This document shows positions 12,837 to 32,779 of a stretch of 64,000 nt of DNA, in pieces (position 1 is the stretch's first letter; each line of letters starts with the position of its first letter). The notes below the pieces were generated by a model that ran no database searches, had not been told where the DNA came from, and saw nothing but the letters and a program-made list of their open reading frames with translations. Position numbers and translations under genes: made by a program. This stretch comes from Deltaproteobacteria bacterium. Its GTDB lineage: Bacteria > Myxococcota_A > Polyangia > Nannocystales > Nannocystaceae. The DNA is taken from assembly GCA_016709225.1 (NCBI GenBank), contig JADJEE010000012.1:2051630-2115629 (forward strand). The letters are read 5' to 3'.

Positions 12837-14811
12837 ATGCGCCGACTGGCTCTGTTGTTCCGCGGCACCTCGCTGTCCCCCGCCCTGCTCGCGTTGATCT
12901 CCGCCTGTGCGGGCTCCGATGCCGGCGACAACCCGGCGAGCTTCGGGCCCGGCACCGCGAAGCGACTCGTCGAGCGACGACTCGTCCGTCGACGGCGATT
13001 CGAGCTCCGATGGCTCGGCATCGATGACCGGCGATCCGACCACGTCGACCACGATGACGACCACCACCGCCGACGACACCAGCAGCGGCGAGTGCATGGA
13101 TGGCGAGACCCGCGATTGCTACTCCGGCCCCGCGGGCACGCAGAACGTCGGCATCTGTGCCGCCGGCACCGAGTCGTGCGTCGGCGGCATGTGGTCGGGG
13201 CAATGCATGGGTGAAGAGACGCCCGGCATCGAGATGTGCAACGGCGTCGACGAGAACTGCAACGGCATGACCGACGAGGGTCTGAACGCCGGCGCCTGCA
13301 ACACCGGCTTGGCCGGCCCCTGTGCCACCGGCGTCAGCATGTGCACCGAGGGCGCGATGATGTGCGTGCCCGATGTCGAGCCCGTGGCAGAGGTCTGCGG
13401 CGACGGCATCGACCAGAACTGCAACGGCACGCCCGACGACGGCTGCATGATGTCGTGCCCGTTCGTGTACGGACACGACGGCCGACGCTGGCACTACGAG
13501 GGCGCGGTCGGTGGCGCGAGCCTGATCGGTCGCCCCGAGCAGGTCGAGCGTGGCCGCGGCAAGCGCGTCGAGTTCGCGCCGCTCGCGGTGCCGCTCGCGA
13601 GCGCGGCGGTGCAGCGCGACCACGACGGCCGCGGTCGCGCGCGCGCGCTGCTGCTGGTCGGCGAGGACGAGATCGCCTACGTCGATCGGCTCGCGCTGGC
13701 AGTGGTCGAGCACGCTCGAGGCACCGAGGTCGTCGCGAGCTCGGCGCTGCAGTGGTCGGCCTCGCAGCGGGCCGAGCGAGCGCCGTTCATCGCGCTACCC
13801 ACCGCCGGCATGCGCACCCCCGATCACGCGAGCTGGCGCGGTCGTGTGGACGTCACCGAGGCGATTGCACGCCGCGACGATCATGCGGTCGCCTTCGACT
13901 GCGCACACGAGAACTTCTACGAACTCGACTTCGGCGAGGTCGAGCACACCGACGCCGCCATCCACCTCGTGGTCGACGGCTGGAAGCTCAAGCACGAGCG
14001 CGCGCTCGGGCCCGATGTGCGCCGCCGCCGGCCGTTCGTGCAGGTGCAGCGGGCCGACGGTGCGTGGCACACGGTGATGCAGGTGCCTTCGCCGCGTGGC
14101 GATCGCAAGACCGTCGCGATCGATCTGTCCGCGGTGCGCTTCGACGGACCGCGGTACCGCGTGCGCCTGTGGACGGGTACCCACGAGGGTGGGCTGGCGA
14201 TGTGGTACGTCGATCGCGTGCGCCTGTGCGTCGGAGCCCCGAGCCCGGTGCAGGTGGCCTCGCTGTCGCCCGCGAGCGCGCGCCTTCACTTCGCGGGCGC
14301 GCCCTCGGGCCTCGACGACGGCGACCGCGCGCAGCCGCGGTGGAACGTGCCCGACGGTCGCGGCGAGCTCACCGACGCGCAGTGCACCTACGGCGACTTC
14401 ACGGCCTACGGCGAGGTTGCGCCGCTGCTGGACCGCGCCGACGACTGCGTGGTCGTGATGCGCAGGGGCGACGCCATCGAGCTGGAGTTCGAGGGCATCG
14501 CAGCGCCGGACGAGGGCCGGGTGCAGACGTTGTGGCTCGACAGCGAGCTGCTCTACAAGCCACGGGTCGTGCCGGGCACCACCGGCGACTCGTCGCTGAC
14601 GCGCAACGTCGGGCCACTGCCGCACCGCGGCATGGGGCACTACCGCGGCGACGCACCGCCGCGCCGCGATCTCGCCTATCTCGCCTATCAACGGCGCTGG
14701 AACACGCGGCGGTACGAGCCCGGCTCGACCCACTGGGGCGAGTCGCGCCACAGCCAAGGCGCACGGCGACGTGCGGTGGTCACCGCCCTGGCGGTGCCGC
14801 TCGCGGCCTGA
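12837..14811 (+). pseudogene. MopE-type Cys-rich repeat lipoprotein, apparently frameshifted near 12942-12950 (authentic frameshift or homopolymer indel in the assembly)
   Basis: Frame 0 from 12837 encodes a signal peptide with an ISAC lipobox (MRRLALLFRGTSLSPALLALISACAGSDAGDNPASFGP). Frame +1 from about 12945 continues with a typical S/D linker (APRSDSSSDDSSVDGDSSSDG), then MopE-like repeats (GVDENCNG, GIDQNCNG, CxxGxxxC) and a roughly 450-aa C-terminal domain. Removing one G of the GGG at 12945-47 joins the two frames cleanly. Confidence 0.6.
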
Positions 14812-14835: not shown

Positions 14836-15225
14836 CTAGCGATAGTCGGTGAGGTGCTTGCGAGCTCCCGCGCGGCCGTGCTCCCGCTCGTCGGCCTGCT
14901 GACACTCGATGCACAGGCGCGCCCACGGCATCAGCTCGAGTCGACGACGCCCGATGGGCTCCTCGCAGGTCTCGCAGGCGCCGAACGACTCCGGGTCATC
15001 GTGCATGCGCTCGAGCGCGGCCTCGATCTCCCGCAGCTGCTCGGCGCGCGTGCGGTTGCGGTTCGACGCGATGACCTGGGCCATCTCCGCCAGGGGTTGC
15101 GCGTCCTCGTCGATCTTGCGCGCCGGATCGATCTCTTGCCCGAGCTCGAGGTCGCCGCCGGCTCGTAGCGAGTCGCGCATGCCGCGGAGCCGCGCTTCGA
15201 TGGTCTGACGCAGCGCGTCGTCCAT
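14836..15225 (-). CDS. DksA/TraR-family C4 zinc-finger protein
   Basis: C-terminal CETCEEPIGRRRLELMPWARLCIECQ four-Cys finger with a coiled-coil N-terminus. The start is at MDDALRQTIEARL, and the upstream part of the ORF is R-rich junk. Confidence 0.75.
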   Translation of the reverse strand: MDDALRQTIEARLRGMRDSLRAGGDLELGQEIDPARKIDEDAQPLAEMAQVIASNRNRTRAEQLREIEAALERMHDDPESFGACETCEEPIGRRRLELMPWARLCIECQQADEREHGRAGARKHLTDYR

Positions 15226-15480
15226 GATCGGGCGCGTAGCATACCGTGTAGGTGCACCCCACGCACGGGCCCGGCGGCGTCGGTGGGCCCGTCGACTTCG
15301 CGGGTCCAGGCGTTCGCTGCGAAAATCTGCCGCGGTCAGGGCGCCACGCAGCGCGCCGAACCGGTGGCCACGACGGGCCGACGCGGTTCGTCGATGAGGG
15401 TGGTGCGGCGAGCCGCTGGCCGGCGCGGCGGGATCCATGACGACGACCCCTCATCACGCCGGCACCTGCGCCGGCTCGCC

Positions 15481-15726
15481 TCACGCCGGCGCATTGCGGC
15501 GAACGCGGGCGGCGGCTTCGCCGATCTCTCCTGGTTCCGGAAAGCGATGCTGCTCGTGCTTGCTGAACACGCGTTCGTTCGCGACGAACACATCGAAGAT
15601 GCCGCGCGCGCCCTCGACGAGCTCGATCCGCAGATCGTCACCCAACGCTGCCTTCAACTCGGCGACCACACGGGTCGCCTGCGGCAGGTAGTTTCACTTC
15701 ACGCAGTAGATGATGCGGACGTCCAT
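15481..15726 (-). CDS. SelW/Rdx-family selenoprotein with in-frame TGA (Sec) in a CxxU motif
   Basis: The listed ORF 15481..15669 is only the C-terminus. Reading upstream on the minus strand gives ATG(15726) MDVRIIYCVK-TGA(15696-15694)-NYLPQATRVVAELKAALGDDLRIELVEGARGIFDVFVANERVFSKHEQHRFPEPGEI. The IxYCxxU N-terminus and GxFxV...FSK...G.FP C-terminus are the Rdx/SelW signature. Confidence 0.75.
15661..15679 (-). promoter_or_regulatory. SECIS-like hairpin downstream of the Sec-UGA (GGCGACC-CGUGU-GGUCGCC)
   Basis: A perfect 7-bp GC-rich stem with a 5-nt loop containing GU begins 14 nt after the UGA. This spacing and shape match bacterial SECIS elements. Confidence 0.55.
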
Positions 15727-16039
15727 GACGGCAATGTTAGCCCAGCCGCCGCCGCGACGATGAATCCCACCGATCGGGCCGCGCAGCCGACAATCTGAAG
15801 CAGACCTTTCGCGCCGTGACGGTTGCATCGCACGTCGATGTTACGCCCGTGCTGCGATCATCGTCGTGCGTTGGCTCGGGCGCGCGGCACGACTGCGCGA
15901 CGATGCGTGCCAAAGTGCCACGCCGCCGCCTTCAGTCCCAGCGCGCTTCCGCACTCGCGCATGCACGTGCGCTCGGGGCGAACGGGGTCACGTTGACCGG
16001 CCAGTTGCATCGCATAAGCTGTGAACACTTCGAGGTGCC

Positions 16040-17200
16040 ATGGACATCGTGAGCGTCGGACCTGTGAGTGGAGGACCTGATGCGCTGCGACGCGAGTTCG
16101 CAGCCGTGGGCTCGCGCGTGGACGGGCCCAAGCTCGCCATCGTGTACCTTCCCTTCGATGTGGATCACGCGGCGTACCTCGCGGCCGCGAGCGAGGGCAT
16201 CGGCGGGCCCGTCGTGGGCGCGACGACGGCCGGCGCCGCGTTCACCGAGCGTGGGTTCAGCACCACCGATCCGGTCGGCGCAGTGCTGTCCGGCCGCGGC
16301 TTCTCGTACTCGATCAGCGTCGCCTCCGATCTCTCGCGTGATCCCGCGACCGCCGTCCGCACCGCCGCGCGACGGCTGGTCGACGCCGCCCATCGCACCA
16401 GCGCGCGCAGCCAGGTGCTGCTGACGTTGGCCGACGGGTTCGCCTGCGATGGCGAGGTGCTCTACGGCGCGTTGCAGCAGAGCGTCCCGCCGCACTGGCG
16501 AATGCTCGGCACCAACGCTGGCGGCGGGCAGCACCTGCGACAGGCCTACGTCTTCGCCGGCCGCGAGATCCTCCGCGACGCCGCGATCCTCATCGGCCTG
16601 TTCTCCGACGCGGCGCCTTCGCTGGTCGCCCACCACGGCTGGCGCGGCGTCGACGGCAGCGCCGAGATGACGGTCACCGAGGTCGAGGGCAACATCCTGC
16701 GTCGGCTCGACGATCGCCCGGCGCTGGAGGCCTACCGCGCCGAGCTCATCCGGCTCGGCTGCATGCGCGACGGCGACGACTTCATGAGTGTCACGGCGAC
16801 CCACGAGCTCGGCATGCGCACGATGTTCGGCGACCAGCTCAAAATCCGGGCGGCGATGGCCGTGGGTGAAGACGGCGCGATCAAGCTCGCGAGTGCGATC
16901 CCCGTCGGCGCGAAGGTGTGCATCGCAACCGCCAGCGCCGACGAGCTCATCGAGGCCGCGCGCACGTTGTCGAGTCGCGCGCTCGAGCCCTTCGAGCGCC
17001 AGGCGCTACACGGCGCGCTGGTGTTCGACTGCGGCGCGCGGCTGCAACGCCTCGGTGCGCGCTACGGCGAGGAGGTCACCGCGTTCTCGGGTGGTCGCCA
17101 CTTCCCGCTCGTCGGCGTCGCCGGCTACGGCGAGATCGCCAAGTTCGCGGGCAGCATCGACGGCTTCCACAACGCGACCGCCGTGATGGCGGTGTGGTGA
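16040..17200 (+). CDS. FIST-domain signal transduction protein (FIST_N + FIST_C)
   Basis: Typical FIST architecture and length (386 aa) with conserved Gly-rich segments (GATTAGAAF, GLFS, LVFDCGAR...GVAGYGEI). Confidence 0.7.
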   Translation: MDIVSVGPVSGGPDALRREFAAVGSRVDGPKLAIVYLPFDVDHAAYLAAASEGIGGPVVGATTAGAAFTERGFSTTDPVGAVLSGRGFSYSISVASDLSRDPATAVRTAARRLVDAAHRTSARSQVLLTLADGFACDGEVLYGALQQSVPPHWRMLGTNAGGGQHLRQAYVFAGREILRDAAILIGLFSDAAPSLVAHHGWRGVDGSAEMTVTEVEGNILRRLDDRPALEAYRAELIRLGCMRDGDDFMSVTATHELGMRTMFGDQLKIRAAMAVGEDGAIKLASAIPVGAKVCIATASADELIEAARTLSSRALEPFERQALHGALVFDCGARLQRLGARYGEEVTAFSGGRHFPLVGVAGYGEIAKFAGSIDGFHNATAVMAVW

Positions 17201-17261: not shown

Positions 17262-17933
17262 TCATGCCGGCGGGCGGGCGGCGAACAGCCGCGAGAGGCT
17301 GAGGTCGAGCTCGGAGTCGAGCAGCTCGACGATGCTGTCGATGCGATGCCGTTCGGCTCCGATCGCGACGCCGAGATCTCGACGCATCGACGCCAACAAC
17401 GCCTCGCGCACGCGGGCGACGCGTCGGGCGACCGTGGCGCGATGGGTGCCGTAGAGTCGGCCGAGCTCGTCCAGCGTGAGACCATCGAGGAACTTGAAGC
17501 GCAGCAGCGCGCGGTCGTCATCGTCGAGCGCGGCGACGGCATCGTCGAAGGCCTGCTTGAACTGCGCGTGGTAGCGCTGCCGCAGCCACGACAGCTCGGG
17601 CTCCGAGGTCGCCCCCGACCGCGACGGTAGCGACGCCACGGCGCGGTCCAACGGCGCGCGACCGCGACGACTGGAGATCGCGACACGCACAGCCGTCGTC
17701 CGCACCCAGTTTGCGAGCGCGCCGCGGCCCGAGTACGCCGCGATCCTCGGGCTCGGCCCGACGAACAGCCGCGCGCGCACCAGCTGGGCGCTGTCGTCGA
17801 CCGCCGCGGGCGCGACACCGGCGCGGGTGAGTGCGAGCGCGATGTCCTTGCCGTGCTCGAGCTCGAACGCCCGCAACGCCGCCGCATCACCACGCGCACA
17901 CGCAAGCGCGAGCGTCAGCTCGGCGGCGTGCAT
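17262..17933 (-). CDS. ECF-type RNA polymerase sigma factor (start uncertain; an N-terminal extension to about 18131 is possible)
   Basis: A region-2-like ARGDAAALRAFELEHGKDIALAL and a region-4 HTH LDELGRLYGTHRATVARRVARVREAL. The longer ORF overlaps the divergent kinase gene, so an internal start is needed (ATG 17933 or TTG 18131). Confidence 0.65.
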   Translation of the reverse strand: MHAAELTLALACARGDAAALRAFELEHGKDIALALTRAGVAPAAVDDSAQLVRARLFVGPSPRIAAYSGRGALANWVRTTAVRVAISSRRGRAPLDRAVASLPSRSGATSEPELSWLRQRYHAQFKQAFDDAVAALDDDDRALLRFKFLDGLTLDELGRLYGTHRATVARRVARVREALLASMRRDLGVAIGAERHRIDSIVELLDSELDLSLSRLFAARPPA

Positions 17934-18218
17934 GCCCGCGAGCTCGGCGGGCTCTCGCGCGTGCGTCGCGAGCGCCTGCAACAACGCCGGCGCGTCGAAC
18001 AGCTCCGGCCAGCGCGCGCGTGCTGCCTCGCACAATGCACGCAGCCGCTCGCCGAGCGCAGGGTCCCCGGTCCAGCGTTCGCGCTGTTCGACCGCGATCC
18101 CACCCACGAAGCTCTCGATCAGCGGATCCAAGGCTTGCCCGGCTCTCTGGCCGCAGTGTCGCACTCCCGCCGCGCAACGTGTAGACGCTGCCGCCGCCAC
18201 GGGCCAAGCTCCCTGGCG

Positions 18219-20706
18219 GAGCGAGGGGTTGTCGCAAGCGACGTGCATCGACGACGAAGGCGCGCTGGCACTGCTGGAGCAGCGCGTCGACGACACCACG
18301 CGCCGTGCGTGCCTGGCCCACGCCGCAACGTGCCCCGAGTGCCGCGAGCTGCTGGCCGAGCTCGCACGAGTGATCGCGACCGCGGGCCCCGACTTGCCGG
18401 CGGCGGAGGACCGCATCGGCCCCTACGCCCTGCGCCACCGGCTCGGGCGCGGTGGCATGGGCGAGGTCTGGCTCGCGCGCGACGATCGGCTCGCCCGCGA
18501 CGTCGCGATCAAGCTGCTGCGACACGTCGATGGCGGCAACGAGCGCGTCATTCGCGAGGCGCGGATCCTCGCGCGCATGGTCCACCCCAACATCGTGGCC
18601 ATCCACAACGTCGGCAGCTCGCCGCTCGGGGTGTGGATCGCGATGGAGCTGGTCGATGGCGAGACGCTCGCGACGTGGGTGCGCGGCCGTGGGGCGCACG
18701 AGATCCTCGCCGCGTATCGACAGGCTGGGCTCGGGCTCGCGCACGCCCACCGCAGCGGCGTGGTGCACCGCGACTTCAAGCCGCACAATGTGATGATCGG
18801 CCGCGACGGTCGCGTGCGCGTGCTCGACTTCGGGTTGGCCGCCATGGTCGGCGCGCCGGCCTCGGCCGCGAGTGCCTCGGGCCCCGGCGAGACCACGCTG
18901 AGCGCCCGCGGCGGGACGCTGGGATACATGTCGCCAGAGCAGCTGCTCGAGCAGCCGAGCACACCCAAGAGCGATCAGTTCGCGTTCTGCGTGGCGTTGT
19001 GGGAGGCGCTCACGGGCTCACGACCCTTCGTCGGCGACTCGCCGGCCGCGATCGCGATGGCCACCCTCGAGGGCCGGCCGCAGCGGCGGGGTCGGCTGGA
19101 TCTGGCCATCGAACGCGCGCTTCGACGCGGCCTCGCGCGCGAGCCGAGCGAGCGCCACGCCGACATCGACGCGTTGCTGGTCGCGCTCGCGCCCCCGCGT
19201 CGTCGATGGCGGCGCGGCGCGATCGCGACCATGGGCGTCGCGTGTTGTGCATGGTGGGCGTGGCCCAGCGCGCCCGCGTGTGAGCGCACCGCGATGGCCT
19301 TCGACGCGCGCACGCGGGCCCTCGCAGCCCGCGCCCCCGATCACCCGCTGCTGGCCCACGCCCGCGCGTGGGCCGACACCGCGCGGGCGAGCTGCGCGGC
19401 ACCACCGGCGCTCGCGCAGTGCGTCGAGGAGCGTCGCGCCGAGATCGAGGTTGCGCTGGCACGGGCCGAGGACGGCGAGCCCGCACCGGTCGTCCTGGCC
19501 GCGGTGCTGCCGATGCAGCGCTGCGACGAGCCCTCGAGCGTCGCACCGTCGGCGAGCCTCGATCCCGCCCTGACGGAGGAGATCGCAGCGTGCAGCCGAC
19601 GCGTGGCGACGTTGCGGGCGACCATCGCGAGCGACCCCCATGGCGACCACGAGATCGCCGCGCTGGCGCTGGTCGAGCGCGCCGATGCGCTGGCGTGGCC
19701 ACCGCTACAGGCGCGCGCACGCGCCTTGCTCGGACAGCACGCGTCGAAGCGCGAGGACTGGCATCGAGCCGCGGAGGCCTTCGAAGCCGCGTACCACCTC
19801 GCGCGCGAGGCCGACGACACCGACACCGAGTTCGACGCGGCCTTCGGCATGATGCCGGTCTACCAGCACCTCGCCGAGCCCGAGCTCGGGCTGGTGTGGG
19901 CGCGTCACGCCGAGGCTGCGCTCGCACGGTTGTCCGACCCGCTTCGACGCACCCGCTGGCTCAAGCTGCGCGGCGAGCTGCGTCAGACCGTAGGGCGGCT
20001 GGACGAGGCCGAGCTCGACCTGCGTGAAGCGGTCGCGACCATGCCCGCCGACGCCCCCGACGAGGACCGCGGCACCGCGACGGCGCTGCTGGCCAACCTG
20101 CTCGCCGCACAGTGGCGCTGCGAAGAGGCGGTGCCGCTCTACGACGCGGCGCTCGCCCAGGAGCTGCCCGCCTATGCGCGCACGCTGGTGATGAACGGGC
20201 TGGCGGTGTGTGCCGTCCAGCGTAAGGACTTCGAGACCGCCGAGCAGATGTTCGCCGGCATCATCGACGAGGCCGAACGCGGGGGGCTCGGTGCCCACGT
20301 GCAGCTGACCGCGAAGTCGAACCTCGCGATCGCCTACGGCGAGCAGAAGCAATACGGCCGCGCGCTGGCGCTGCTGCACGACATCTGGCAGATGCCGCTG
20401 CTCACCTCCCTCGATCGCAACGAGGTCGAGGTCAATCTCGCGCTGTACTACCTGCGCAGTGGCGACCATGGGCGTGCGGCATCCTGGGCCCTGCGGGTGC
20501 TCGAAGACCCCGCCGCATCGCCGCGCATGTCGGGGAAGGCGGCCTGGACGGCGAAGGAAGCCCTCGTCGCGATGCATCAACGCGGGCGTGCGTACGCGGT
20601 GTGGCAGCGCAGGGTCGCGCTCGACCTGGCGCAGGGCGACCTCGAGGATCTGCCCGACGACCTACTCGCGTGGCTCGAGCTCGCCGACGCTGCGAGTGCG
20701 TCGTAG
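18219..20706 (+). CDS. Ser/Thr protein kinase fused to N-terminal zf-HC2 anti-sigma-like domain, C-terminal TPR-like region
   Basis: N-terminal CIDDEGALALLEQRVDDTTRRACLAHAATCPECRELL matches the anti-sigma zf-HC2 pattern (C...H...C..C). It is followed by a kinase domain (GRGGMGEVW, VAIK, HRDFKPHN, DFGLA, SPE) and a long helical repeat C-terminus. A TTG at 18219 sits 8 nt after GGAG. Confidence 0.8.
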
Positions 20707-20757
20707 AAAAGGCGAAGCCCCCGAGACCTTCGATCTCGGGGGCTTCTCTTTCCCTTG

Positions 20758-20831
<74 letters not shown>

Positions 20832-24413: not shown

Positions 24414-26312
24414 ATGTGCGGCATCACCGGGATGATTCGGACCGGCGGCAGCGTCGACGCAGCGCTGCTCGATCGCATGACCGACAGTCTCGCCCACCGT
24501 GGCCCCGACGGTCGCGGCGTGCACATCGGCGACGGCTTCGGCTTCGGACATCGGCGGCTCGCGATCATCGATCTCTCGACGGGCGCGCAGCCGATGCACA
24601 GCGCCGACGGGATGCTGTGCATCACCTTCAACGGCGAGATCTACAACTACATCGAGCTCCGTGCGCAGCTGATCCGTGCCGGCCACCGCTTCGAGACCCA
24701 CAGCGACACCGAGGTGCTGCTCGCGGCCTACCGCGAGTGGGGCGACGAGATGTTCGGGCACCTCGATGGCATGTTTGCGTTCGGGCTGTGGGACGCGGGA
24801 CGACGGCGGCTGCTGTGTGCCCGCGATCATCTCGGCGTCAAGCCGCTGTACTACGCCGAGCAGCGCTCGCCGCTCGAGGGCGACACACCGCTGTCGTTCG
24901 CATCGGAGCCCAAGGCACTGCTGCAGTGCCCGTGGGTGTCGCGCGAGCTCGACCCGGTCGCGCTCGACGCCTACATGGATCTCTTCTACGTGCCGCCGCC
25001 GTTGTCGATGTTCCGCGGCGTGCGACAGCTACCGCCCGGCTCGGCGCTGTCGTGGTGCGATGGCAAGCTCGCGATCTGGCGCTACTGGGACGCGCCACCG
25101 ACCATCGACGAGCGCCACGACCTCGAGACCTGGGCCGAGATCGTGGAGCCGGTGCTCCGCGACGCGATCGTCATCCAGACCCGCAGCGACGTGCCTCTGG
25201 GCGCGTTCCTCTCGGGTGGGCTCGACTCCTCGACCATCACCGCGGTGCTGGCCGAACACGGCAGCGCGCCGGTCTCGACCTTCTGTGTCGGCTACGGCGA
25301 CGAGGGCAAGAGCTACGACGAGCGGGAAATGGCGCGGGTGGTCGCTCGGCACTTCGGCACCGATCACCACGAGGTCGTGCTCGACATCGACGTGCTGCAG
25401 GGTCTCGAGGCGATGGTGCGCGGCTTCGACGAGCCGTTCGGCAGCCCGACTGCGCTGCTGTCGTCGGCGCTATCGAAGTTCACCCGTGGCAGTGTGACCG
25501 TCGCGCTCGCCGGCGACGGTGGCGACGAGCTGTTCGGCGGCTACCCCCGCTACCGCGGCATGATGCTGTCGGAGCGCGTGTCGGGCCTGCCCGAGGGCGT
25601 CTACAACGCCGGCGAGCGGCTCGCCCAGGGCCGCGAGGCCGCGGTCGCACGCAGCTATCGACGGTGGGCTCGCCAGTTCTTCGCCGGCGCGGCATTGCCC
25701 CCCGCCGAGCGCTACGCCCGCTGGGTCGGTTACACCAGCGTGGCCGAGCGCGACGGCATGTACACCCCGGCCTTCCGTGAGCGCATCGTCTCGGCGGGCC
25801 GCGTCGATCCGGTCGCAGCGTGCTTCGCCGGGCCTGCCCACGGCGATGCGGTCGAGCGCGCCGCCTATGCCGATCTGCACGGCTTCCTGCCCGAGAACGT
25901 GCTGCGCGGCTCCGATCGCATGAGCATGGCCTGGGGTCTCGAGCTGCGGGTGCCGCTTTGTGACGTGCGGCTGGTCGAGCTCGCGATGCAGATCCCCTCG
26001 CGGCACCGCGTCGGCGCGCTCGCGAGCAAGCGCGTGCTGCGACGCATCGCCGAGAACCTGCTGCCCAAGCAGATCCTCGAGCGCAAGAAGCTCGGCTTCA
26101 ACGCCCCGCTGGGCGTGTGGCTGCGCCGAGATCTCGATCGACTGGTCTCGCAGTGGCTCGCACCGGAGCTCGTGCGCGCGCGGGGGTGGTTCGACGCCGA
26201 CGCCGTCACCCGGATCGTGCACGAGCATCGCGAGGGGCTGCGAGACCACGGGCTGCGGCTGTGGTCGCTCATCGCGATCGAGCAGTGGCACCGCTGCTAC
26301 GGCGAGGCCTAG
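24414..26312 (+). CDS. asnB: asparagine synthetase (glutamine-hydrolysing), canonical MCGI N-terminus
   Basis: MCGITGMI Ntn-Cys start, HRGPDG, RLAIIDL, a PP-loop SGGLDSS, and a typical length of 632 aa. Confidence 0.85.
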   Translation: MCGITGMIRTGGSVDAALLDRMTDSLAHRGPDGRGVHIGDGFGFGHRRLAIIDLSTGAQPMHSADGMLCITFNGEIYNYIELRAQLIRAGHRFETHSDTEVLLAAYREWGDEMFGHLDGMFAFGLWDAGRRRLLCARDHLGVKPLYYAEQRSPLEGDTPLSFASEPKALLQCPWVSRELDPVALDAYMDLFYVPPPLSMFRGVRQLPPGSALSWCDGKLAIWRYWDAPPTIDERHDLETWAEIVEPVLRDAIVIQTRSDVPLGAFLSGGLDSSTITAVLAEHGSAPVSTFCVGYGDEGKSYDEREMARVVARHFGTDHHEVVLDIDVLQGLEAMVRGFDEPFGSPTALLSSALSKFTRGSVTVALAGDGGDELFGGYPRYRGMMLSERVSGLPEGVYNAGERLAQGREAAVARSYRRWARQFFAGAALPPAERYARWVGYTSVAERDGMYTPAFRERIVSAGRVDPVAACFAGPAHGDAVERAAYADLHGFLPENVLRGSDRMSMAWGLELRVPLCDVRLVELAMQIPSRHRVGALASKRVLRRIAENLLPKQILERKKLGFNAPLGVWLRRDLDRLVSQWLAPELVRARGWFDADAVTRIVHEHREGLRDHGLRLWSLIAIEQWHRCYGEA

Positions 26313-27563
26313 TCGCTCGTGGTGGCCTGCTGGCAGGCTCGAGCACTTCGAGCTGCACGAGCGCATCGACCAGCACGCTCACGCGCTCGACGTGGGCAGG
26401 ATCGACGCGCAACGGCGCCTCTGCGGTAGCGTGAAGGAGCTCCGCGATCGAGAACGGCACGCCCTCGGTCGCCAGCATCCATCGACTCGGATCGACGAGC
26501 GTCGGACCGAGCTCGACCTCGATGTCGTCGCAACACAGGGAGCATCCGCCCCCCTCGGCGACCTCGATCCTGGCGTTCGCCGCGTGGCGAAGTCGGAACT
26601 GCGTCGAGCTCGCGGGAAGGTGGGCGAGTCGGGAGCTCGTTGCGCGTTCGATGACCTCGCGCACGTCCAACGACTCGACCAGCGCGTGCAAGCGATCCAC
26701 GGCGGCGGCGAGCTCCCGATGCGCGTCCGACCGTGCTCGCCCCGGCAAGCCGAGACCGACCGCCGGGCGACGCAGCCGCGGATCTGCCGTCAGCAAGGAG
26801 GTCATCGCGCGAGCCAGCAGCCGCGCCCACGAGTCGGGCTGGAACATGAACGACACCGAACACGAGACGGTGTCACCGATCGCTCCCGTGCGATGCCACA
26901 TGCCACTCGGGACGAACATCGCGGTGCCTGCCACGAGACGAACGCTTCGCGGTGTGTCGAAGGCCGAGCAATCGAAACGTCGCGGCCCATACTCGGGCGG
27001 CGACAGCCCAGGCAAACCATCGAGCGGACCACGGACTGGTTCGTCGGGGTGTCCTGCACGATGGGGGTGTCGGACATCCGGGTTGTCCGCGAGCTGCCAC
27101 TGCTTGGAGCCCACCACCTGCGCGACGATCACGTCGGCACCATCGAAGTGCCAGCCATAGGCGTCGCTGGCACCGGGCGGCGAGTAGACGATCCGGGTCG
27201 TGACGATCGACGCGGGGAAGCCGAGTTCGCGCGCCAGATCAGCACCCACGTTGGCGAGCGGCGGGTGGATCTCGGCGTGCGCGATCTGGATGCTCTGGCC
27301 GTCCTCGAAGCGCCGCAGCGCGTCGTCCCGCTCGAGCTCGTGTCGCGTGACGAGCCGCCCCTGGGCATCTGCCGCGAATGACGAGAGGGTGCAGCGGCGG
27401 TCCAGGCAGGGCAGCAGCTGAGCCGGGTCATGCGGGAGCGCTGCGAGTGGTCCGAGCCGCAGGGGGTCGCCTCGAACCCCAACGACCTCGCGTCGAGCCA
27501 GGCGTGGAGCAGTGCATCGACGCTGATGCCGGGCAGTACGTCGCCGATTCGCAAGTGCCGCAT
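26269..27563 (-). pseudogene. JmjC/cupin-4 family hydroxylase (ribosomal-oxygenase-like), apparent frameshift at C5 run 27462-27466
   Basis: The ATG at 27563 lies 9 nt after the upstream gene's stop and gives MRHLRIGDVLPGISVDALLHAWLDARSLGFEATP. The JmjC domain (DDALRRFEDGQSIQIAHAEIH...VYSPPGASDAYGWHFDGADVIVAQVVGSKQWQL) is in the -1 frame from about 27466. A sixth C in the CCCCC run would give continuous ...GFEATPLRLGPLAALPHDPAQLL... Confidence 0.6.
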
Positions 27564-27571
27564 GGGGGACC

Positions 27572-29764
27572 CTAGTACACGGTGCCCGCGTGGTCGCGCG
27601 GAGCGAACATGGCGAAGCCGAAGATCGAGGTGCTCGCGGACGGCTGCGGCTCGCGCCAGTGCTCGACTGCCGTCCCTCGGTAGAGCACGGCCTCGCCGGG
27701 CTCGAGCCCGATGGCGACATCACCGGCGGCGCCGCGAAGCCACAACGGCCACAGCGGAGCATCGGGTGGCGACGTGACGTCGTAGGCGATCGAGACGTTC
27801 CAGGTGCAGCCTGGCCGATCGGTGTGTCGGAGTAGCTCGGCACGCTCGCCGTAGATCCGCACGTAGCACAACGTGGGTCGAACCTCCTCGTCGACCATCG
27901 ACGAGATGATCGGGACCAGCTGGTGCTGCCAGAAGCGGGTCGCGACCTCGAAGTGAATGCCCAGGTGACCGAGATACCGGTGCTCGCGGTGGAATGCCCC
28001 CGCGCGAGCCAGGCCCTCGAGATGGCGGCCGAGTCCCTGCAGCTGCGGGCGGTTCAGCCACCGCGGGAGGCGTGCGTAGCCGAAGCTGCGGTAGTGCTCG
28101 CGCGCAACCTCGACCTCGCGGCGCCACTGCTCGCTTCGCCGCTCGCGATCTCCGGGCGCGAGCAAGATGCCCGCCTCGCGCAACATCGCGATCTCCGATG
28201 CGTCGAAGTCCCACGCCCGCGGTCCCGAGGCCCACAGCGAGTCGAACCGCGCGGCCTCGCGCGGGGCCGCGCGGTAGGGCGCCCACATGCCGCTGCCCGG
28301 ATCCCTGACCCACGCCGTCGGTCCGTGGGGAGCGAGCCGCAACGCGAACCCGAGCGTGGTCGCGATCTGTGGCGGCACGTCGGGGGTCGTCTGCACCACG
28401 TGCTCGGGATTGACGGCGAACTCCGTCGACTCCGACAACGCGGTGGCCCCTGACGGCCGTGCGCCGATCTCGGCCACCCAATCCTGCGAGACCTCGGTAC
28501 CCAGCGTCGGCGCGTCGCCGAGGACGCGCCGAAGTGCCGGTCGAGTGCGGATCCGTCGGGCGATCGCGAGGATGTCGGCCCTGCCTCGCTCGACGTCCTC
28601 GGCGTCGAAGACTGCGGCGACACGGGCAAGCAGCGCGTCCTCGTCGCAGCCGTCGAACAGGCCTCGCAGCAAGATCTCCGAGACGGGGTCTTCGGAGAGA
28701 GCGAGTGGGTCACGCAGTTGACCGAGCCAGCCCCACAGGACCTCGTCGATCGCGTGCTCGGGGTAGAGCTGCCCGAGCAGCGCGCGCATGCATGCGCGGT
28801 CGGGAACCAGCATCAGCAGGAACAGTGCGAGCCGCTGCTCGGGGTTCACGTCGGTGCGCACGCTGAGCAGCGAGTGCCGCTCGTGGACCCGAGTGATCGC
28901 CGCTTCGATGCGCAGCATGACGTCGCCGTGCACGGTGCGACCGCTCTCACAGAGGTCGGCGAGCATCGCCGACGGCACACCGAGCGCTGCGGCCCTCGCG
29001 AGCAGCTCGATGGATGCGGCGAGCGGCGACTCGCGGATCGCGACGTCGAGGCAAGCCTCGATCGCGAAGGGCGCGAATCGTCGCGGCACCTCGGCCAGCG
29101 CCCGGTATCGGAGCCGTTCGCGGGGCGTCGGCGGCCGACGCACGTACGCGACGCCCGGCGGAAGGATGGTCCACTCGGGTTGGCGCGCCGTCGTGCGCAC
29201 GAGCACCGTCGCCGCGGCCGCGTCGAGCGTCATGCACTGACACGCGAGTGGTGCGGTTCGCACGATGCTTCGCAGGTCCCCCGGCGTCAGGACCTCGGCG
29301 CCGGCCCAGCTCAGCTCACCGAGGCGGACGTCGGCGTGCTCGCGCGCGACCTCGGCGAAACGCCATTGGGCGCGAGCGATACGTCCCTCGACGACCGCGA
29401 GCACTCCCGTATCGTGGCGCTCCACCAGCTCGGTGGTCTGCTCGAACCACAGCTCCGCCTCGATCTGGAGGCCATCTGCCGCGTAGAGCTCCACCACGAT
29501 CCCATCGCCTTCGGCGGCGGACGAACTCCCGTCGGAGAACACGAGGTGGGCGAGACCGCGACAGAACCCGATCCCGGTCGTGGGTGTCTGCACGAGCACG
29601 TCGTGGGCGATGTCATCGAACGCCGCCTCGGCCCGACCCGCACGGGTCCAGCGGCCGTCGATCCTCGCCGCGACGAGCTGGGCCCATGCGCGTACCGCCG
29701 CGGCATCGTGCGCGGGACCGAAGGCGTGCGCGCGCGCGGCCGTGAGATCCCAGGGAGCGCTCAC
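27572..29764 (-). CDS. large hypothetical protein with C-terminal 2OG-Fe(II)-oxygenase-like (HxD...H) domain
   Basis: The 730-aa N-terminal two thirds have no recognised motif. The C-terminal 200 aa contain LRHTDRPGCTW (HxD) ... GEAVLYRGTAVEHWREP (distal His), consistent with a double-stranded-beta-helix oxygenase. The GTG start at 29764 overlaps the TGA of the upstream TPR gene (GTGA). Confidence 0.55.
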   Translation of the reverse strand: MSAPWDLTAARAHAFGPAHDAAAVRAWAQLVAARIDGRWTRAGRAEAAFDDIAHDVLVQTPTTGIGFCRGLAHLVFSDGSSSAAEGDGIVVELYAADGLQIEAELWFEQTTELVERHDTGVLAVVEGRIARAQWRFAEVAREHADVRLGELSWAGAEVLTPGDLRSIVRTAPLACQCMTLDAAAATVLVRTTARQPEWTILPPGVAYVRRPPTPRERLRYRALAEVPRRFAPFAIEACLDVAIRESPLAASIELLARAAALGVPSAMLADLCESGRTVHGDVMLRIEAAITRVHERHSLLSVRTDVNPEQRLALFLLMLVPDRACMRALLGQLYPEHAIDEVLWGWLGQLRDPLALSEDPVSEILLRGLFDGCDEDALLARVAAVFDAEDVERGRADILAIARRIRTRPALRRVLGDAPTLGTEVSQDWVAEIGARPSGATALSESTEFAVNPEHVVQTTPDVPPQIATTLGFALRLAPHGPTAWVRDPGSGMWAPYRAAPREAARFDSLWASGPRAWDFDASEIAMLREAGILLAPGDRERRSEQWRREVEVAREHYRSFGYARLPRWLNRPQLQGLGRHLEGLARAGAFHREHRYLGHLGIHFEVATRFWQHQLVPIISSMVDEEVRPTLCYVRIYGERAELLRHTDRPGCTWNVSIAYDVTSPPDAPLWPLWLRGAAGDVAIGLEPGEAVLYRGTAVEHWREPQPSASTSIFGFAMFAPRDHAGTVY

Positions 29765-31603: not shown

Positions 31604-31873
31604 GGCCGCCGAAGCGTCCGAGAATTCGGAACGCACCATGATGAGTAGGGCCGACCTCGCGCGCGGTAGACCTGCGGATCCGCGCTTCGATCACCCGCGG
31701 GGCCCTCGCACCGTCGCAAGACGACGAAGACACCACCCTTGGAAGGGAGCGTCGGTGCACGCAGCGCACGGCCCTGGCCTTGCGGCTCGCACGCACCCTC
31801 CGCACGCGCGGGCCAGTCGCGGCGGCGCTCGTCGTGCTGGCGCTGCTCGGGTGCCCGCTGCGGTACCCTCGAG

Positions 31874-32779
31874 GTGGTGGCCGATCCCCACGACGACGAC
31901 GATGACGACGACGTTCCCCTGCGTGCCCGCGCGGTGCCGGAGGTCGAGGTCGACGTCGACGCACTCGCGGCCGACCTGCAGACAGCGGCGTCACGGACGC
32001 CGGCGTACGACGACATCGACCTCGGCGGCGCCCGCGACGACGAACTCGACGGCGGCGATGACCTCGAGGACCTCGAGGCAGAGTTCGAGGAGCTCGATGA
32101 GCTGCTCGAGGCCGTCGAGCCCTCCGAGGCCTCCGAGCCGCCCGAGGAGGCCACGCAGCCACGTCGGCTCTACCTCGCCGTCGACGGTCGCCTGCACGTG
32201 GTGTCGACCGAGCGCTTCGTGATCGGCCGGGTCTCGAGCCAGTGCGACCTGACCATCGTCGACGCCAACATCTCGCGCCAGCACTGCGCGATCGAGCGCC
32301 GCGACGGCCTGTTCTTCGTGGTCGATCTGGGCAGCACCAACGGCATCATCGTGGACGGCATGCGCGTCGACGATCACCCGATCGCCGACGGTGAGGTGCT
32401 GGTGCTGTCGGGGCACCGAATCGTCTGCAGCTTCGAGCCGCCCGAGCTCGAGGCCGTCGCAGCGCCGCAGCCGATGGCAACGCCGGTTGCCGTGCGTCCG
32501 GCAGTGACCGCCCGCCTGTCACCGGTGTCGCCGGCGACCCCCGAGGCCTTCGTGGCGACGCCCACCGCCGCCCGCGCGCCGACGCCCGTGTCGATCCCCG
32601 CGGCCACACCCATGGGCTTCGAGCAACGCGTGGAGCAGCAACTCGCCGCGATGGCCGCCCAGCTCGCCGCGCTCACCTTCGCGGTGCAGCGCCTCGTCGA
32701 GCAGGGTGAGTCGCTCAAGGGCGTCGAGGCGCTCGCGCAGGTGATCCAGCGCCGCTTCGAGCAGAGCAAGCGCGGCTAG
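31874..32779 (+). CDS. FHA-domain protein with acidic N-terminal region (start uncertain)
   Basis: FHA core FVIGRVSSQCDLTIVDANISRQHCAIERRDGLFFVVDLGSTNGIIVDG. A GTG near 31874 is chosen because no ATG is available upstream of the domain. It ends 1 nt before the GNAT gene. Confidence 0.6.
   Translation: MVADPHDDDDDDDVPLRARAVPEVEVDVDALAADLQTAASRTPAYDDIDLGGARDDELDGGDDLEDLEAEFEELDELLEAVEPSEASEPPEEATQPRRLYLAVDGRLHVVSTERFVIGRVSSQCDLTIVDANISRQHCAIERRDGLFFVVDLGSTNGIIVDGMRVDDHPIADGEVLVLSGHRIVCSFEPPELEAVAAPQPMATPVAVRPAVTARLSPVSPATPEAFVATPTAARAPTPVSIPAATPMGFEQRVEQQLAAMAAQLAALTFAVQRLVEQGESLKGVEALAQVIQRRFEQSKRG

Follow-up and report, generated by a model that had tools for sequence, protein, structure and literature searches.

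A gene on the minus strand of the analysed 64-kb stretch of DNA (hereafter the window) is very probably a genuine SelW-like selenoprotein gene of the Rdx family, in which an in-frame UGA would be decoded as selenocysteine (Sec) by SelB acting on a hairpin inside the open reading frame. The full coding sequence occupies positions 15481..15726 (-) and, read through the TGA, comprises 80 residues and a stop, MDVRIIYCVK-U-NYLPQATRVVAELKAALGDDLRIELVEGARGIFDVFVANERVFSKHEQHRFPEPGEIGEAAARVRRNAPA. The gene has been truncated by gene callers because the in-frame TGA at 15694..15696 (-) is most likely a selenocysteine codon, and the same TGA is found in the same column in its relatives.

On the established knowledge of this protein family and of bacterial Sec decoding, SelB binding, Sec insertion and redox chemistry may be expected to proceed as follows. 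With the ribosome at UGA 15696-15694, the hairpin 15679-15661 in the coding sequence would act as a bacterial SECIS, and its small apical G-U loop, located 21 nt past the UGA, would be presented to the SelB-GTP-Sec-tRNA(Sec) complex, which would deliver selenocysteine in place of release-factor-2 termination. The product is predicted to be an 80-residue protein of the thioredoxin-like fold with a Cys8-x-x-Sec11 redox centre. As a small thiol-dependent oxidoreductase, it may alternate between a selenol/thiol state and a Cys8-Sec11 selenenylsulfide.

Reading Frame and Family Membership

The minus-strand frame consists of 81 codons from ATG 15726 to the stop 15483-15481 and crosses the in-frame TGA at 15696-15694, its translation reading MDVRIIYCVK*NYLPQATRVVAELK... 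The start codon ATG (15724..15726, -) lies 10 codons ahead of the proposed Sec codon, and from ATG 15726-15724 the codons run GAC GTC CGC ATC ATC TAC TGC GTG AAG, followed by the TGA. Beyond this TGA the frame is open to the terminal TGA at 15483-15481, and the translation reads MDVRIIYCVK*NYLPQATRVVAELKAALGDD...NAPA. The first-pass annotation had claimed that a 62-aa ORF continues 5' through the in-frame TGA in the same frame, and that the resulting protein starts at ATG 15726 and reads MDVRIIYCVK up to the TGA; both claims were verified by translation. The 10 codons located 5' of the TGA have a GC3 of 1.0 and a GC2 of 0.2, which is the coding signature of this window with its GC content of 70.5%. 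Judged by this codon signature and by the 27 bits that it adds to the Pfam Rdx score, the extension of the frame 5' of the TGA is well beyond chance.

For profile scoring of the 80-residue protein, Sec was entered as Cys. The protein scored 60.4 bits against the Pfam Rdx profile PF10262 (cutoff 22.6), with residues 3-69 falling on profile positions 2-69 of 74, and 50.4 bits against NCBIfam TIGR02174 CXXU_selWTH, which is over the cutoff of 34.2. The best-scoring NCBIfam model was the Campylobacter-type NF041051 SelTWH_Campy with 79.7 bits; this score is under the equivalog cutoff of 88, and membership of that equivalog was rejected. A sequence search of the PDB matched six solved bacterial Rdx proteins, namely 3DEX, 2FA8, 2OKA, 2OJL, 2OBK, and 2P0G, among which 3DEX was matched with E = 2e-6 over residues 3-69. 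Homology to these six solved proteins of the Rdx fold indirectly points to a thioredoxin-like fold for the 80-residue product.

The CxxU redox motif, made up of TGC (Cys8, 15705-15703, -), GTG, AAG and TGA (Sec11), occupies positions 15694..15705 (-) and sits right after the N-terminal beta strand, the TGA taking the position of the second Cys of the CxxC found in the Cys homologues. In the printed alignments of the PDB search, C8-V-K-U11 is superposed on the CTQC of 3DEX, 2FA8 and 2OKA. The full-length Cys homologues P0007 and P0008 carry CAPC at the CxxU site, where they read IEYCAPCNYLPR, and the TGA column coincides with the second Cys of the CxxC in P0007, P0008 and a Cys-form metagenomic locus termed L085. 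The alignment of the read-through protein to Rdx/SelW (PF10262) and the placement of the TGA at the U of CxxU, both of which had been proposed from the sequence beforehand, are in full agreement with the Pfam score and with this column.

The Hairpin Downstream of the TGA

The SECIS-type hairpin (15661..15679, -) is composed of the 5' arm GGCGACC (15679-15673), the loop CGUGU (15672-15668) and the 3' arm GGUCGCC (15667-15661), the two arms pairing perfectly over 7 bp around a 5-nt loop, with an energy of -12.1 kcal/mol. Its 5' arm begins 14 nt past the UGA, and the distance from the UGA to the loop amounts to 21 nt; the perfect 7-bp stem with a GU-containing 5-nt loop, as given in the first-pass annotation, is exact in the sequence. 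The published bSECIS criteria (PMC13188914, Fig. 2 legend) comprise a loop of 3-9 nt, a stem of 4-16 bp and a UGA-to-loop distance of 16-37 nt, together with a G in the first two loop positions and an energy of at most -7.5 kcal/mol. The window hairpin lies within all of these bounds, its loop CGUGU having the G at position 2, and the N1-N2 pair that closes the bSECIS loop in its commonest pattern is absent from it. Rfam returned no SECIS or other relevant family for the whole window at the gathering threshold, the tRNA-Asp being the only match, and a permissive E-value scan of 15450-15800 likewise gave no SECIS or relevant family, only sub-threshold noise.

Against dinucleotide shuffles, the hairpin has a fold z-score of -1.53. 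When the peptide was recoded synonymously 200 times, 26 of the variants folded no less well than the original, and about 5.5 of the 7 stem pairs are already dictated by the amino-acid sequence alone. As a background, 16% of the 956 TGA triplets in the window are followed by a hairpin within the generic bSECIS limits, 3.2% by one at least as stable as the present hairpin, and 0.9% by one of at least that stability that also has the G[G/U] loop motif. Taken alone as evidence for a SECIS, the window hairpin is therefore not statistically exceptional and only suggestive.

Related DNA was obtained from two sources. Loci L001-L008 represent the DNA of the six closest database proteins together with two loci of Nannocystales MAGs from a genome collection, and a metagenome scan seeded by the protein alignment yielded 80 further loci. 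The comparative evidence for a SECIS-type stem is strong, and the comparative data alone carry the putative SECIS assignment. In the ungapped alignment A2, which contains 73 unique sequences and pairs stem columns 24-30 with columns 36-42, 92.5% of the cells are paired versus 82.5% in shuffles, and the covariation score is 0.292 versus 0.109, neither value being reached by the shuffles (0/500 in both cases). When the 3' arm was slid by 1-3 columns, the pairing dropped to 19-60%, and RNAalifold predicted the same stem on A2 independently. At pair 27/39, where two third positions that are both four-fold degenerate face each other (GCN with GYN), 70 of the 73 sequences form a pair, with five pair types in use, versus about 57% expected from the base frequencies at these two positions (CG 41, UA 11, GC 8, GU 6, UG 3-4, unpaired 3). 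Pair 24/42, which also matches wobble with wobble, changes between GC (50) and CG (9). Since the compensatory changes at pairs 27/39 and 24/42 concern synonymous wobble positions, they cannot be explained by protein-level selection. A compensatory pair difference is also seen between the window and loci L001 and L002, with GGCGACC/GGUCGCC in the former versus GGCCACC/GGUGGCC in the latter. The earlier description of the hairpin as what is expected of a bacterial SECIS accords both with the published bSECIS constraints and with this covariation among relatives.

With perfect stems alone counted, 60 of the 73 relatives pass the bSECIS criteria and 13, including the close relative L005, fail. Pair 28/38 is A.C or U.C in 13 sequences (A2 columns), and the aligned sequences indicate that the failing relatives mostly carry a single internal mismatch in the same stem register. 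A soil clade (L006, L007/L014, L008) possesses a post-UGA hairpin of other sequence, GCCAAGCC-GUU/GUC-GGCUUGGC, which in L006-L008 is nearer to the UGA, by about 3 nt, than the hairpin of the other family members. Locus L085 (Ga0210385_10004437), the sole Cys-form locus recovered, has lost the family-register stem, with 3 of the 7 pairs left, and carries another hairpin of 11 bp, which includes G-U pairs, has the loop GACCG and starts 14 nt past the Cys codon; this second hairpin may be what is left of a SECIS after Sec was exchanged for Cys, or it may have arisen by chance.

The same data bear on the possibility that the UGA is read through without selenocysteine, by a near-cognate Trp or Cys tRNA or in a reassigned code, and that the hairpin is a by-product of an Ala/Val-rich peptide or a generic stimulator of read-through. 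Such a reading could appeal to the roughly 5.5 of 7 stem pairs given by the amino-acid sequence alone and to the Cys-form L085, which likewise has a stable hairpin nearby (11 bp, 14 nt past the Cys codon), but it is considered very unlikely. TGA is the normal stop in 17 of the 30 confidently called genes of the window, which means that the genetic code is not reassigned, and this usage at 70% GC is unlike that of UGA-reassigned genomes. In addition, the site corresponds to the redox Cys in a listed CxxU selenoprotein family (PMC13188914, PMC1088965), the loop retains G-[G/U], a feature of SECIS elements that bind SelB, and the stem shows covariation at synonymous positions, all of which argue for Sec insertion as the preferred reading.

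A second selenoprotein was sought across the window among in-frame TGAs with coding-like GC3 flanks, and the two candidates obtained were rejected. The TGA at 27379-27381 (+) runs antisense to a JmjC/cupin gene (26269-27843, -), and that at 31991-31993 (-) is antisense to the called gene 31739-32779 (+); both were put down to the spurious frames that arise antisense to genes in high-GC DNA.

Conservation of the TGA and the Truncated Product

All eight loci L001-L008 contain the TGA in frame at the same column (8/8), and in each of them it is preceded by the motif M-x-[VI]-x-[IV]-x-[YW]-C-x-x. Among the metagenomic loci, 79 of 80 have TGA at this column, and the remaining one (L085) has TGC. 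The metagenome scan employed two patterns, one of them near the C-terminus and distant from the TGA column and the other requiring Cys, so that the count of 79/80 is unbiased toward TGA. Relatives with as little as about 40% identity still share the TGA, and the sequence on either side of it is conserved at the protein level. A start codon lies 10 codons ahead of the TGA across the related loci and is mostly ATG; in a few of them it is apparently GTG, TTG or CTG, and in some none is evident. On either side of the TGA, variability is highest at the third codon position, with an entropy of 1.24 versus 0.95 and 0.97 at the other two positions upstream, and of 1.23 versus 0.89 and 0.70 downstream. 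The expectation, raised with the original observation, that the upstream frame and the TGA would be kept in relatives is thereby borne out in both sets of loci.

The product reported by the gene caller is the 62-aa ORF with a GTG start (15481..15669, -), a truncated fragment which corresponds to the C-terminal three quarters of the 80-residue frame and is devoid of strand beta1 and of the CxxU motif. It is identical to the database protein P0001, labelled 'hypothetical protein'. The six closest proteins in a collection of 5.8 billion proteins are all C-terminal fragments of 48-62 aa, just as had been anticipated for the output of standard callers, and the DNA of all six displays the same upstream frame and TGA. 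A functional 62-aa protein translated from GTG 15669, with the TGA as a true stop and possibly with a 10-codon upstream ORF, would have a legal start codon, and with 33.3 bits the short ORF alone is still over the Pfam cutoff. Those bits, however, cover profile positions 21-69 only, without strand beta1 and the family-defining CxxC/CxxU centre. The internal start is not conserved, since it was placed differently in the relatives, giving lengths of 48-62 aa, and in the related loci the 10 codons ahead of the TGA are conserved as the motif given above. This explanation is likewise considered very unlikely.

ARAGORN found no tRNA-Sec in the 64-kb window or in 49 related loci, and tblastn with E. 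coli SelA, SelB and SelD found no selA, selB or selD homologues in the window or in the related loci, a search space of 407 kb of related DNA that is uninformative on the whole genome. The only tRNA gene of the window recognized by ARAGORN and Rfam is a tRNA-Asp. A pseudogene, in which a Cys-type Rdx gene has been killed by a nonsense mutation and nothing functional is made, would take just a single transition from TGC to TGA and would suit both the lack of Sec machinery in the 64-kb window and the database annotation of the gene as a fragment or hypothetical protein, but it is the least probable of the three alternatives and effectively refuted, because the TGA is common to divergent lineages (8/8 and 79/80 related loci, to about 40% identity, with protein-conserved flanks), as a nonsense mutation would not be, while the upstream codons retain the coding GC3 signature and the hairpin covaries.

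Comparison with Known Systems

Knowledge of bacterial SelW-like CxxU selenoproteins goes back to 2005 (PMC1088965, PMC1794560, PMC13188914). With 48 genes, they outnumbered every other selenoprotein family in the Sargasso Sea data (PMC1088965). They are present in Geobacter, Desulfotalea, Symbiobacterium and others (PMC1794560), and were listed in a 2026 review as a high-confidence prokaryotic selenoprotein family with the Pfam family PF10262 and the CxxU motif (PMC13188914). The window gene resembles this family in its HMM scores above cutoff (PF10262, TIGR02174), in its size of about 75-90 aa, in the CxxU directly past the N-terminal beta strand, and in the in-ORF hairpin that directly follows the UGA and carries a G in its small apical loop. 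No categorical difference was found; the commonest loop of the family is GGUCU, compared with CGUGU in the window. The host of the window gene is a 70% GC, apparently Nannocystales-type myxobacterium, and literature searches combining Nannocystales or Myxococcota with selenocysteine or selenoprotein returned nothing relevant.

The window gene possesses every SelW-like family feature that was tested, and the family itself is already known, so that the existing knowledge of selenocysteine decoding and of the Rdx family is unchanged by it. The value of the finding lies mainly in annotation. This gene and its six closest database relatives are stored as fragments of 48-62 aa without the active site, which makes the selenoproteome and the redox repertoire of these myxobacterial lineages look smaller than they are. 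Moreover, the 73-sequence alignment offers unusually clean wobble-site covariation evidence for an in-ORF SECIS in the SelW-like family.

The solved Cys-containing Rdx proteins (3DEX SAV_2001, 2FA8 Atu0228, 2OKA, 2OJL, 2OBK, and 2P0G) are homologous to the window protein over residues 3-69 and have the C-terminal FP-x-P motif in common with it. They differ in carrying Cys (CTQC) rather than Sec and in their length of about 105 aa, which includes extra C-terminal sequence, and the similarity is weak, with E values from 2e-6 to 2e-2. Mammalian SELENOW and the SelT/SelH/Rdx12 group belong to the same Pfam family as the window protein, and the CxxU of the SELENOW group takes the equivalent position of the thioredoxin-like fold. 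In eukaryotic members of the SELENOW group, the SECIS is located in the 3'-UTR, contains a kink-turn core and is served by the SBP2/eEFSec machinery, whereas the window shows a simple hairpin within the reading frame itself, 14 nt past the UGA, in the bacterial style.

The SECIS of E. coli fdhF is an experimentally defined SelB-binding hairpin, which likewise lies directly downstream of the UGA within the coding sequence. In the E. coli genome, its apical loop GGUC starts 18 nt past the UGA, versus 21 nt in the window. The G-U of the loop is the established contact with SelB and is common to fdhF (GGUC), the window (CGUGU) and the commonest loop of the family (GGUCU). The upper stem of fdhF has a bulged U and a 4-nt loop, in contrast with the perfect 7-bp stem and 5-nt loop of the window hairpin, and outside the loop there is no sequence homology between the two.

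Genomic Neighbourhood and Upstream Region

The closest genome loci to the window derive from Nannocystaceae and Nannocystales MAGs. The downstream neighbour of the SelW-like gene encodes a DksA/TraR C4 zinc-finger protein (14836..15438, -; PF01258, 47.2 bits), which is syntenic in L001, L002, L003, L009, L010, L011 and L012. Its true start is probably near 15225, since the 200-aa ORF is conserved only from about residue 54-70. The divergent neighbour on the other side encodes a sensor protein with FIST N and FIST C domains (16040..17200, +; PF08495, PF10442) and is syntenic in L001, L002, L003, L005, L009, L010 and L011. The order FIST, SelW-like, DksA/TraR is kept in seven related loci. The distance separating the SelW-like gene from the DksA gene ranges from about 0.25 to 1.4 kb, which speaks against an obligatory operon. 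In the soil clade (L006, L007/L014, L008), the neighbours are GST, glyoxalase, adenine glycosylase and cytochrome oxidase genes.

Upstream of the SelW-like gene, the sequence TAACAT (15734..15739, -) forms a -10-like TANNNT element that ends 7 nt ahead of the ATG. An element of this type occurs at the same place in eight Nannocystales-type loci (the window, L001, L002, L003, L005, L009, L010, and L012), in the forms TAACAT, TATCAT, TATACT and TATGCT. A consensus promoter scan reported nothing at 15734-15739, and no Shine-Dalgarno sequence is visible upstream of ATG 15726. The TANNNT box combined with the absent Shine-Dalgarno sequence suggests that the SelW-like mRNA may be leaderless. A broader proposal, in which a leaderless SelW-like mRNA of the Nannocystales type belongs to a conserved redox- or selenium-linked regulatory module of FIST, SelW-like and DksA/TraR genes, appears rather unlikely at present; if true, it would give a physiological context to the bacterial SelW-like family.

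Several further features of the surrounding DNA were recorded. The SelW-like and DksA genes are separated by about 1.4 kb in L001 and L003 versus about 0.25 kb in the window, and the gap in L003 contains a called 462-aa ORF without a Pfam match. A MopE-type Cys/Asp-rich protein of 634 aa (12907-14811, +), with putative metal-binding repeats (PF11617), is 98% identical in L009 and 72% identical in L001. Beyond the FIST gene, domain matches identified a sigma-70 region-4 protein (17262-18416, -) and a Ser/Thr kinase with TPR repeats (17827-20706, +), whose ORFs lie on opposite strands and show an apparent overlap of about 590 nt. The 5' end of the kinase ORF is probably over-extended, as the kinase domain begins at residue 200.

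The tRNA-Asp(GTC) gene (20757-20831, -; ARAGORN, Rfam) is found within a few kb of the SelW-like gene in L002 (7453-7527) and L010 (469-543) as well, and in the window, L002 and L010 alike it adjoins a class I methyltransferase gene. The recurrence of the tRNA-Asp near the SelW-like gene in these three places implies that the synteny spans at least 6 kb. Ahead of the FIST gene on the plus strand, a promoter-like arrangement was noticed, in which TTGACC (15993-15998) is followed after 16 nt by TAAGCT (16015-16020) and, 11 nt further on, by GAGGTG (16032-16037) in front of ATG 16040. The arrangement is conserved in six relatives, namely L001, L002, L003, L005, L009 and L012.
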